DNA of 64,000 bases. It comes from Klebsiella phage LPKP23. Within the stretch, counting starts at the first letter, position 1, and every line of letters starts with the position of its first letter. Made by a program: the position numbers and the translations under genes. A model generated the notes under the pieces. The model did no database searches. It was not told the origin of the DNA and saw only the letters and a program-made list of their open reading frames with translations. Below are positions 13,641 to 14,351 of the stretch, piece after piece. The DNA lies in sequence record PV112478.1, one strand, 5' to 3'.

Positions 13641-13923
13641 TAAGATTCTTCCTCAAGGAAAGTTTCTGACCCAGTTTGAGGGTGCGGATCGGAAGTTCGA
13701 TTGATCCACACGCATTGGCGATAATGGTTCCTGTCGGTGTTCCAACCACCGCAGTGAATTCATCGGGATGTTTCTCAATCAACCCGATGCTGGCGGAGAA
13801 CAGATCTTCATCGCGCGCGAGCAGATGTAAATCAGCTTCACTTACGATGTCGCCGATGTAAGGATAATTTGGATTGCGGTCATAGGCGACAGTTGGAGAC
13901 TGCTTGACTTTCTTTGCCGACAT
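13633..13923 (-). CDS. hypothetical protein (96 aa)
   Basis: ORF with short overlaps to both neighbours. Confidence 0.45.
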   Translation of the reverse strand: MSAKKVKQSPTVAYDRNPNYPYIGDIVSEADLHLLARDEDLFSASIGLIEKHPDEFTAVVGTPTGTIIANACGSIELPIRTLKLGQKLSLRKNLNG

Positions 13924-14351
13924 TATTCCTTCCCTCCGGAGATAACCGAAAATGGATTTGGTTTCTTAGTTTCTTTTGCTGGTTCAGCGGGTTCGTCAGA
14001 ACGCCCGTCAGCAGTGATGAGTTTTTGCGGGAGTTGAATCATCTGTTCCGGGTTATCAGGGTTAAACATCTGAATGACGGACCCCCACGGGAAAGTGTCT
14101 GAGGCGAGTTTACCCCCGAAACGCCCTTCGAAGAACAACCCTTCGTCCAGTGAAGAAAGCTGACAGGAATGCGGAGAAACATTCAGTGTCAATACGTGAT
14201 ATCCCTGCATGTTAGGGACCGGTTTGACATATTGACGAAGAATGGGATTCACGGTGATTTCGGTACCAAAGACCGTGATGTAAATACGGCTGCCATTATC
14301 GATAAGCCAGCTATAACCTGCATCAAACAACGCTTTATTTAAAGAAGACAT
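13923..14351 (-). CDS. SspB-like protein (ClpXP specificity-enhancing adaptor homolog)
   Basis: GYSWLIDNGSRIYITV, NVSPHSCQLSSLDEGLFFEGRFGG and DTFPWGSVIQMF align with E. coli SspB (FYEWLLDNQLTPHLVV, NIAPRAVGNLELANDEVRFNARFGG, VSVPLAAVLAIY). These are followed by an acidic/Pro-rich linker and a short C-terminal tail, matching SspB architecture. Confidence 0.6.
   Translation of the reverse strand: MSSLNKALFDAGYSWLIDNGSRIYITVFGTEITVNPILRQYVKPVPNMQGYHVLTLNVSPHSCQLSSLDEGLFFEGRFGGKLASDTFPWGSVIQMFNPDNPEQMIQLPQKLITADGRSDEPAEPAKETKKPNPFSVISGGKE

Follow-up and report, generated by a model that had tools for sequence, protein, structure and literature searches.

The 64,000-nucleotide stretch of Klebsiella phage LPKP23 DNA analysed here (record PV112478.1; the whole stretch is termed the window) carries, at positions 13923..14351 of the minus strand, a gene for a 142-amino-acid protein which, on its sequence and its modelled fold, is a divergent phage-borne homolog of the bacterial ClpXP adaptor SspB. 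The function favoured here, with a confidence slightly above even, is that of a phage-lineage tethering adaptor of the SspB type: its C-terminal tail, resembling XB, the ClpX-docking peptide of SspB, would dock on the N-domain of host ClpX, and its groove would bring cargo to ClpXP.

The gene is located inside a densely packed array of genes of the same strand. Its open reading frame (ORF) starts with ATG, as read from the sequence, and at its end the stop codon and the start codon of the following ORF, of 96 amino acids, overlap as TAATG. The 142-amino-acid protein quoted in an earlier, sequence-only reading of this DNA is the exact product of this ORF. The gene and its parts are the following.

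13923..14351, minus strand: complete SspB-like coding sequence, 142 amino acids, from the ORF list; stop codon at 13923-13925
14358..14362, minus strand: Shine-Dalgarno-like GGGAG, 6 nucleotides (nt) 5′ of the SspB-like ATG, read from the sequence
14022..14351, minus strand: predicted SspB-type substrate-binding domain, residues 1-110 (AlphaFold2, Foldseek, HMMER and shared motifs)
13959..14021, minus strand: linker, residues 111-131 (LITADGRSDEPAEPAKETKKP), short, variable and predicted to be disordered (AlphaFold2 confidence, alignments A1 and A2)
13926..13958, minus strand: conserved C-terminal peptide NPFSVISGGKE, residues 132-142 (tail peptide KKPNPFSVISGGKE), a putative XB-type motif (conservation, clade relatives)

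In the profile searches, the LPKP23 protein matched PHROG 8945 (stringent starvation protein SspB-like) with E=6e-7 and 30.3 bits, residues 6-105 being aligned with positions 12-106 of a profile of 149. Nine NCBIfam models of the ClpXP protease specificity-enhancing factor also matched it (1e-6 to 1e-2). Used as a single sequence against the PDB with phmmer, it retrieved the SspB of Haemophilus influenzae (1ou9; E=3.6e-4, residues 8-112). The profile of alignment A2, which consists of phage-clade sequences only, matched the SspB of Escherichia coli (8et3_Y, E=4.7e-6) and nine further SspB chains (E from 1.4e-5 to 1.4e-3), while the profile of alignment A3, which contains one cellular-type member, recovered 2,833 representatives of the SspB superfamily in an exhaustive search.

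The AlphaFold2 model, built from an alignment of 21 sequences, showed an N-terminal helix (residues 4-18) followed by a beta-rich core. The predicted local distance difference test score (pLDDT) was at least 94 at residues 11-100 and 82-85 in the ten residues at either end of the domain, and residues 111-142, i.e., the linker and the tail, were disordered (pLDDT 45-57), with no secondary structure. In the Foldseek comparison of this model with the PDB, the best 13 matches were all SspB proteins (E from 1.6e-7 to 1e-5; template-modelling scores of 0.70-0.80 normalised to target length; root-mean-square deviation about 2.7 Å), including chain 8et3_Y of the ClpXP delivery complex. The orthologs from Caulobacter and Agrobacterium came next with weaker scores, and beyond SspB and its orthologs no significant match was found in the PDB. 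According to the same alignments, the domain of the LPKP23 protein is about 20-23% identical to the solved SspBs. The claim of the sequence-only reading that this is an SspB homolog is thus upheld by a significant profile match and by an SspB predicted fold. The architecture it described (an SspB domain, a flexible linker and a short C-terminal tail) is borne out by the agreement of the AlphaFold2 model, Foldseek, the profiles and the conservation pattern.

The motifs which had been pointed out in that reading also align with E. coli SspB: GYSWLIDN with FYEWLLDN (17-24), RFGG with the identical RFGG (75-78), and DTFPWGSVIQMF with VSVPLAAVLAIY, the proline of the latter pair being common to both. 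More generally, the motifs YxW(L/I)xDN, LN(V/I)(S/A)P and (A/G)RFGG are shared by the LPKP23 protein and cellular SspB. In the alignment made for the groove (106 cellular representatives and E. coli, 28 phage-type proteins and the LPKP23 protein), about 36 positions are at least 70% conserved in cellular SspB, and about half of them are kept in the LPKP23 protein. In E. coli numbering, the kept residues are L13, A16, Y18, W20, D23, N24, V32, L53, N54, P57, F72, R75, F76, G78, P86 and N98, and the replaced ones are P11, Y12, R15, T27-P28, V41-P42, A89, A92, A95, G99 and G101. L56-N57 of the LPKP23 protein is invariant throughout the whole alignment, whereas the cellular N-terminal signature RPYLLR is changed to SLNKALF. 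Since about half of the conserved cellular positions are kept, binding of ssrA tags by the phage groove is possible. By analogy with SspB, dimerisation would probably proceed through the N-terminal helix. In the delivery complex solved by cryo-electron microscopy, the dimer interface and the ssrA groove are the only strongly conserved parts of SspB, and the residues at the SspB C-terminus are unresolved (PMC9963277).

Among relatives of 54-71% identity, the N-terminus MSSLNKALFDA and the C-terminus KKxNPFSVI(D/S)GGKE are invariant, whereas the linker varies. In both alignments A1 and A2 the linker is the least conserved stretch, and its length differs between clades, ranging within the phage clade from about 20 to about 100 residues (about 20 in LPKP23 vs about 50 in E. 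coli SspB). P133, F134, I137, G139, G140, K141 and E142 of the tail remain invariant among homologs down to 29% identity.

The census of C-terminal tails covered 168 proteins, namely the best 150 of the 2,833 profile matches and 18 earlier homologs. A canonical C-terminal XB of the consensus (K/R)-P-x-(L/F)-x-(V/I)-(V/I)-K was found in 106 of the 168, and 29 end in hydrophobic-x-(V/L/I)-(V/I/L)-x-G-G-(K/R) followed by zero to six residues. The LPKP23 end FSVISGGKE fits this second pattern, as does that of phiKZ gp232, and within the census the GGK type of tail accompanies the phage-type N-terminus. Homologs of only 26-32% identity keep the tail as well, i.e., NPFSVIKGGKE in Moabite and Totoro and RPKFGLIQGGKE in PhiEaH1. 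Uncultured members from the profile search end in RPKFGVIQGGK(Q/S/E) or NPFSVI(E/F)GGKE, and uncultured proteins of 212-218 amino acids end in KPTLTVIKGGRAN.

Several proteins have tails which bridge the two types. P0054 and P0028, 40% and 32% identical to the LPKP23 protein, end in RPSLKVVH and NPFTVVK, respectively, and P0036 ends in NPFTVIKG. The tails of P0019, P0020 and P0025 read KPTLTVI(K/Q)GG(R/K), compared with the cellular KPTLTVVK, and P0033 combines a body of cellular type with the end RPKFTLITGGK. A gapless position matrix of XB was constructed from 102 cellular XB tails and the phage-clade proteins were scanned with it, p values being obtained from shuffles. The best site within the LPKP23 protein is its tail. 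The scores were the following.

KPTLTVI: 18.8 bits, p <0.003
RPTFGVI: 8.2 bits, p 0.003-0.013
RPKFGVI: 6.1 bits, p about 0.02-0.03
PNPFSVI (LPKP23 protein): 1.2 bits, p=0.17, not significant

The XB-type assignment of the LPKP23 tail is made because of its position, the homology of tails within the clade, and these intermediates. The sequence-only reading had raised FSVISGGKE as a possible counterpart of the XB motif LRVVK; that suggestion finds indirect backing in clade relatives which carry SLKVVH, PFTVVK or KPTLTVIKGG at the same position, but none in the score of the LPKP23 tail itself. In our reading, the tail may consist of an XB core, hydrophobic-x-V-I, prolonged by a GGK typical of phages. 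Residues L161 and V164 of XB are reportedly its buried anchors (Park et al. 2007), and they would match F134 and I137 of the LPKP23 protein. The XB peptide binds ClpX's zinc-binding domain whatever its position in the polypeptide, and a SUMO-XB-GGS construct binds ClpX with about 65 nM (PMC12373786). As XB followed by GGS still binds, the GGK extension need not prevent docking. In peptide arrays, the consensus for the zinc-binding domain was L-K-x-(small hydrophobic) (PMC7226468). The idea of an SspB truncated before XB, i.e., a decoy unable to dock, had arisen from the resemblance of the tail to a mid-linker island of E. coli SspB, and was dropped as a lead: clade relatives and phiKZ gp232 show a terminal XB-type motif plus GGK.

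The phage relatives of the gene are numerous. LPKP23, from which the window derives, is itself a jumbo phage of about 300 kb. In a megablast search with positions 12000-17000, Klebsiella jumbo phages of about 300 kb (KpLz-2_45, vB_kp_MJ359 and related Kp records) matched most of the query at about 93% identity, and FBKp24 and Centimanus half of it at 86-87%. By tblastn, homologs of the LPKP23 protein are encoded in 25 phage records: identities are 98-99% in nine Klebsiella jumbo-phage records, 56-57% in FBKp24 and Centimanus, and 26-32% in jumbo phages of Serratia (Moabite, Kodama, Totoro, 2050HW and others), Pectobacterium and Erwinia (PhiEaH1 and Ea277G). A scan of IMG/VR with A2 yielded two contigs only. 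With E. coli SspB as the tblastn query, 78 further phage records were found, of which 49 belong to Pseudomonas (those listed being mostly phiKZ-like) and 18 to Erwinia (mostly RAY-like), the others including Ralstonia, Xanthomonas, Acinetobacter and pf16. In total, SspB homologs are present in about 100 phage genomes, mostly of jumbo phages of Pseudomonas, Erwinia, Klebsiella, Serratia and Ralstonia.

The tails of these more distant homologs are mostly of XB type: KKPTLTVVK in RAY gp039, KKPTLRVVK in pf16 gp18 and FLSVVK in gp94 of Ralstonia phage FLC4-3B, all three proteins being undetected by tblastn with the LPKP23 protein. The gp232 of phiKZ (PHIKZ232, 302 amino acids; positions 1171-2079 of locus L090), which is annotated by locus name only, carries an SspB-like domain at its N-terminus and has PKLTVIKGGKK as its last residues. 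Since independent phage lineages keep an XB-type terminal peptide, ClpX docking is argued to be a selected property. The recurrence of the GGK form in a Pseudomonas phage, phiKZ, argues for this form being a phage-typical variant and not a mimicry specific to Enterobacterales. The identity of about 53% between pf16 gp18 and E. coli SspB suggests a more recent capture in that case. A separate observation concerns Xanthomonas phage LucasX, the gp196 of which (188 amino acids; positions 1153-1719 of locus L094) has FRARRKPSS at its end and lacks an XB-type tail, alone among the inspected phage homologs.

Some of these proteins have already been named or discussed, and the novelty implied by the sequence-only reading was too high. 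GenBank records carry the names 'Sspb-like stringent starvation protein' (MJ359), 'stringent starvation protein B family protein' (Moabite) and 'SspB-like protein' (Kodama), and a PHROG family exists. For the gp18 of pf16, competition with host SspB has been put forward (PMC5587285), and RAY gp039, located in the cytoplasm, has been suggested to act as a ClpXP adaptor (PMC10299810). In one proteomics study, the gp232 of phiKZ was enriched in the shell fraction yet diffuse in the cytoplasm, and no connection with ClpX was reported (PMC10449902). What appears to be undescribed in the searched literature is the subgroup with the XB plus GGK tail, to which phiKZ gp232 also belongs, and its likeness to the linker island of host SspB.

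The mechanism that may be proposed for the adaptor is as follows. Residues 1-110 would form the SspB peptide-binding domain, the short disordered linker would serve as a flexible leash, and the last 11 residues, NPFSVISGGKE, would be the docking peptide. The hydrophobic-x-V-I core of the tail would bind the zinc-binding N-domain of host ClpX in the way that the SspB XB (L-R-V-V-K) does. The phage protein would thereby be seated on host ClpXP during infection, and would then either hand over the peptide bound in its groove or fill the docking sites of SspB, RssB and N-domain-dependent substrates. Binding of ClpX, and any effect on proteolysis, we infer from these sequence features. Two points of context are in line with an adaptor: the RAY homolog is found in the cytoplasm, which is where host ClpXP resides (PMC10299810), and the SspB-like gene is syntenic across related jumbo phages, amid nucleotide-metabolism and auxiliary genes.

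Several findings weigh against this interpretation. At the level of the family, Pfam PF04386 gives the LPKP23 protein only 13.1 bits (E=0.1), below its gathering cut-off of 27, and just three of nine phage-clade members match this model at E<=0.01; similarly, the best NCBIfam equivalog model reaches 28.5 bits against a cut-off of 135. Because the scores fall below the curated family cut-offs, the protein is designated a divergent homolog rather than an equivalog. At the level of the domain, the replacement of RPYLLR and of several other conserved positions means that dimerisation and ssrA binding cannot be assumed, and the linker is about half the length of that of E. coli SspB. At the level of the tail, XB position 2 is not occupied by a basic residue, the final lysine is missing, the residue at position 5 is variable (S, D, K, Q, E or F), and the XB assignment is transitive since the XB-matrix score of the tail itself is not significant. 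The tail fits the enterobacterial linker island better than XB, and when HMMER aligns the phage profile with E. coli SspB, the tail comes to lie on residues 129-137, at the linker island VMSVIDGDK. Finally, the searched literature yielded no functional study of a phage SspB homolog, phiKZ gp232 included, and neither binding nor degradation measurements on any of them.

The same architecture and the same tail would also suit a blocker, which docks on the N-domain of ClpX, sequesters ssrA-type tags, or does both, with no productive hand-off. Such a protein could shield phage proteins from N-domain-dependent degradation by ClpXP, or shut the host pathways of SspB and of RssB/sigma-S. It is known that an excess of SspB, or of the XB peptide alone, inhibits the RssB-dependent degradation of sigma-S by competing for the zinc-binding domain (PMC7226468). 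A linker of about 20 residues, compared with about 50 in E. coli SspB, could hinder hand-off, and the GGK extension and the altered groove could serve affinity and not delivery. However, for blocking the tail alone would suffice, yet the folded domain and the groove motifs LNxSP and RFGG are conserved across the clade. As clade linkers can be as short as about 20 and as long as about 100 residues, the short linker is not a conserved feature, and the computed evidence does not favour inhibition over delivery. This explanation is considered rather unlikely.

An equally tentative extension of the adaptor proposal is that the XB plus GGK tail may be a phage-evolved ClpX ligand, stronger or differently regulated, which outcompetes SspB and RssB, and that the diverged groove may retarget ClpXP to a host or defence protein. 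If true, the protein would be a natural viral targeted protein degrader in bacteria, and the linker island VMSVIDGDKP would be an unrecognised second ClpX-docking element of host SspB.

The linker island is a feature of the cellular proteins. In about 80 species of Enterobacterales, the acidic and variable linker of SspB holds a conserved island, (T/M)(V/L/M)M(S/Q)(V/I)IDG(D/S)(K/R)P, at protein residues about 125-137 (cellular sspB loci L005-L084). In E. coli it occupies residues 127-136, VMSVIDGDKP, upstream of the XB tail RGGRP(A/S)LRVVK; the host island peptide is ETVMSVIDGDKPD and the host XB peptide RGGRPALRVVK. With a matrix built from 13 distinct islands, the LPKP23 tail PFSVISGGK scored 5.2 bits (p=0.04) and the PFSVIDGGK of close relatives 11.3 bits (p<=0.002), whereas the Erwinia-type and P0019-type tails were not significant. 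In cellular linkers, an internal motif hydrophobic-x-(S/V/T/A/I)-(V/I/L)-(D/E) is found in 21 of 101 non-redundant sequences, compared with 3.6 +/- 1.9 in shuffled linkers. Since the island has the hydrophobic-x-V-I pattern of XB it could also bind ClpX, and it may act as a second and weaker docking element for ClpX or have another partner. No description or function of the island was found in the searched literature.

These scores, the HMMER placement of the tail, the conservation of the island in about 80 species and the enrichment of island-like motifs are all compatible with a different docking partner. The tail would then mimic the island VMSVIDGDKP or bind a phage protein, and the SspB fold would serve another pathway as a peptide-binding module. 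Candidates for such a partner would be the phrog_839 protein, the gene of which is a conserved neighbour, and, in relatives, the HslV-family peptidase of Serratia, Erwinia and Pectobacterium phages with an SspB-like gene. On the contrary, the same tail type is present in phiKZ gp232 of a Pseudomonas phage and, as canonical XB plus GG(K/R), in P0019, P0020 and P0025, which makes mimicry of Enterobacterales unlikely as its origin. The island itself shares hydrophobic-x-V-I with XB and may bind ClpX, the HslV-family gene is undetected by tblastn in the Klebsiella phage group, and its co-occurrence may merely mirror genome relatedness. A dock other than XB-type binding to ClpX seems doubtful, and is placed below a blocker.

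The least probable possibility, and a quite improbable one, is a special case of the favoured adaptor with its cargo specified, namely an ordinary ssrA adaptor supplementing host SspB for faster clearance of ssrA-tagged fragments and amino-acid recycling under heavy phage translation: the core of the groove is kept (L56-N57 invariant; P60, F74, R77, F78 and G80 common with cellular SspB), the conservation of SspB lies in its ssrA groove and its dimer interface (PMC9963277), and pf16 gp18 and RAY gp039 are near-canonical SspBs with canonical XB tails, but of the positions conserved at 70% or above only about half survive, whole signature segments are replaced, the host already has an SspB of the same tag specificity, and the identity of about 20-23% to solved SspBs suggests a changed specificity.

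The neighborhood of the gene in the window includes the following features.

14382..14876, minus strand: upstream ORF, 164 amino acids, YbiA-like by homology (53% identical to Moabite gp214; phrog_652, 1e-34)
13633..13923, minus strand: downstream ORF, 96 amino acids, weak phrog_36327 match (6e-4)
13014..13640, minus strand: phrog_839 protein, 208 amino acids (phrog_839, E=6.6e-27), conserved downstream neighbour
16207-16830: dUTPase, in conserved gene order
12979..13012, minus strand: terminator-like hairpin with a 14-bp stem (7 G-C pairs) and then a T-run, just after the phrog_839 ORF
14390..14406, minus strand: repeat copy TTTAAAATCTATATCAC, a candidate phage promoter, inside the 3′ end of the upstream ORF
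2678-2694, 3239-3255, 14390-14406, 22644-22660, 46289-46305 and 48291-48307, minus strand: copies of the 17-mer repeat

The upstream ORF ends 30 nt before the start of the SspB-like gene and has no Pfam match at E<=0.01; the record of its homolog Moabite gp214 bears a note citing an HHpred match to E. coli YbiA. The ORF of 96 amino acids is absent between the corresponding genes of Moabite and Totoro, and its translational coupling is suggested by the TAATG overlap. The phrog_839 protein is 33-39% identical to the ORF which overlaps the SspB-like stop in Totoro and Moabite, and has neither a Pfam nor a PDB sequence match. Its conservation beside the SspB-like gene in Klebsiella and Serratia jumbo phages makes it a possible partner or cargo. 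The order shared with Moabite and Totoro is tail-fibre-like genes, dUTPase, small ORFs, YbiA-like, SspB-like and phrog_839. Neither Pfam nor the PDB gave a sequence match for any of these neighbours. Pfam, PHROG and PDB searches of the neighbour genes for a partner or a substrate gave function-unknown families only, and no transfer RNA or transfer-messenger RNA was found in the window.

The sequence-only reading had placed the gene downstream of a conserved promoter motif. The repeat is real and ends 38 nt before the ATG; it is a candidate for a phage-specific promoter or another regulatory site. The 17-mer, TTTAA[AC]ATCTATATCAC, occurs in six copies with three or fewer mismatches (0.34 expected), all on the minus strand, and its 11-mer core gives six matches compared with 0.94 expected; the core is also present at 54407-54417 (minus strand). 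A scan for sigma-70 promoters and terminators gave site counts in the region no higher than in shuffles, for which reason the hairpin is a positional argument only. A three-gene unit is plausible, since the motif at 14390-14406 and the hairpin at 12979-13012 would delimit it.

In related phages, further genes are found near the SspB-like gene. A gene of the HslV peptidase family is present in all 13 jumbo-phage records of Serratia, Erwinia and Pectobacterium which have a GGKE-tailed SspB-like gene; the two are about 800 nt apart in PhiEaH1, the peptidase gene being the downstream one (positions 4189-4752 of locus L003), and in the Moabite record the peptidase gene is at 255459-255935. As a general partner, the HslV-family peptidase was rejected on the negative tblastn result in the Klebsiella phage group, and the co-occurrence may reflect shared ancestry only. 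In MJ359 (positions 9614-12411 of locus L001), genes for a nicotinamide mononucleotide (NMN) adenylyltransferase and a PnuC-like NMN transporter are located about 3-6 kb from the SspB-like gene. Uncultured homologs adjoin genes for dUTPase, thymidylate synthase, RNA ligase and NMN transporters, and one contig repeats the NMN pairing. The NMN genes look like a nicotinamide adenine dinucleotide (NAD)-salvage module, of the kind proposed to act against NAD-depleting defences. Overall, the neighborhood is of an auxiliary, host-interaction character and is uninformative on mechanism.

Manipulation of host proteolysis by phages is known, and no characterised phage-encoded ClpXP adaptor was found in the searched literature. 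Nearly all phage homologs keep a tail of the ClpX-docking type, which argues for selection for access to host ClpX. The identity of the cargo could expose a mechanism of host takeover or counter-defence, and the tail variant could serve as a ClpX-recruiting tag in engineered protein degradation. For the LPKP23 gene itself the gain is modest: the existing annotation is confirmed and a testable description of the tail is added.

Compared with bacterial SspB (PF04386; 1OX9, 1OU8 and 8ET3), the LPKP23 protein is predicted to have the same domain fold and the same plan of domain, linker and peptide. The bacterial proteins carry RPALRVVK at the C-terminus; the LPKP23 protein carries NPFSVISGGKE instead, and is phage-encoded. 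Its annotated counterparts include MJ359 gp247 (99% identical), Moabite gp216 (31%) and the Kodama protein, with which the PHROG 8945 family, the GGKE tail and the gene neighborhood are shared. Relative to this family and its annotated relatives, the LPKP23 gene is another member with no substantive difference.

Similarly to the LPKP23 protein, phiKZ gp232, P0019, P0020 and P0025 combine an SspB-like domain with a tail of the form hydrophobic-x-V-I-x-G-G-(K/R). They are, however, much longer (212-302 amino acids), with a long linker or an extra region, and their domain is about equally close to cellular SspB and to the LPKP23 clade; phiKZ also differs from LPKP23 in its Pseudomonas host and in forming a nucleus. 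RAY gp039, pf16 gp18 and FLC4-3B gp94 are phage-encoded like the LPKP23 protein, but have canonical XB ends, (T/R/S)VVK, with no GGK extension.

The synthetic XB degraders, i.e., split SspB adaptors and CLIPPER peptides, are engineered with the authentic E. coli XB, whereas the LPKP23 protein is known here from its sequence and a model. Such a construct uses an XB-type peptide to anchor its binding module on the N-domain of ClpX and delivers a chosen target to ClpXP, and the same logic is the one proposed for the phage protein.

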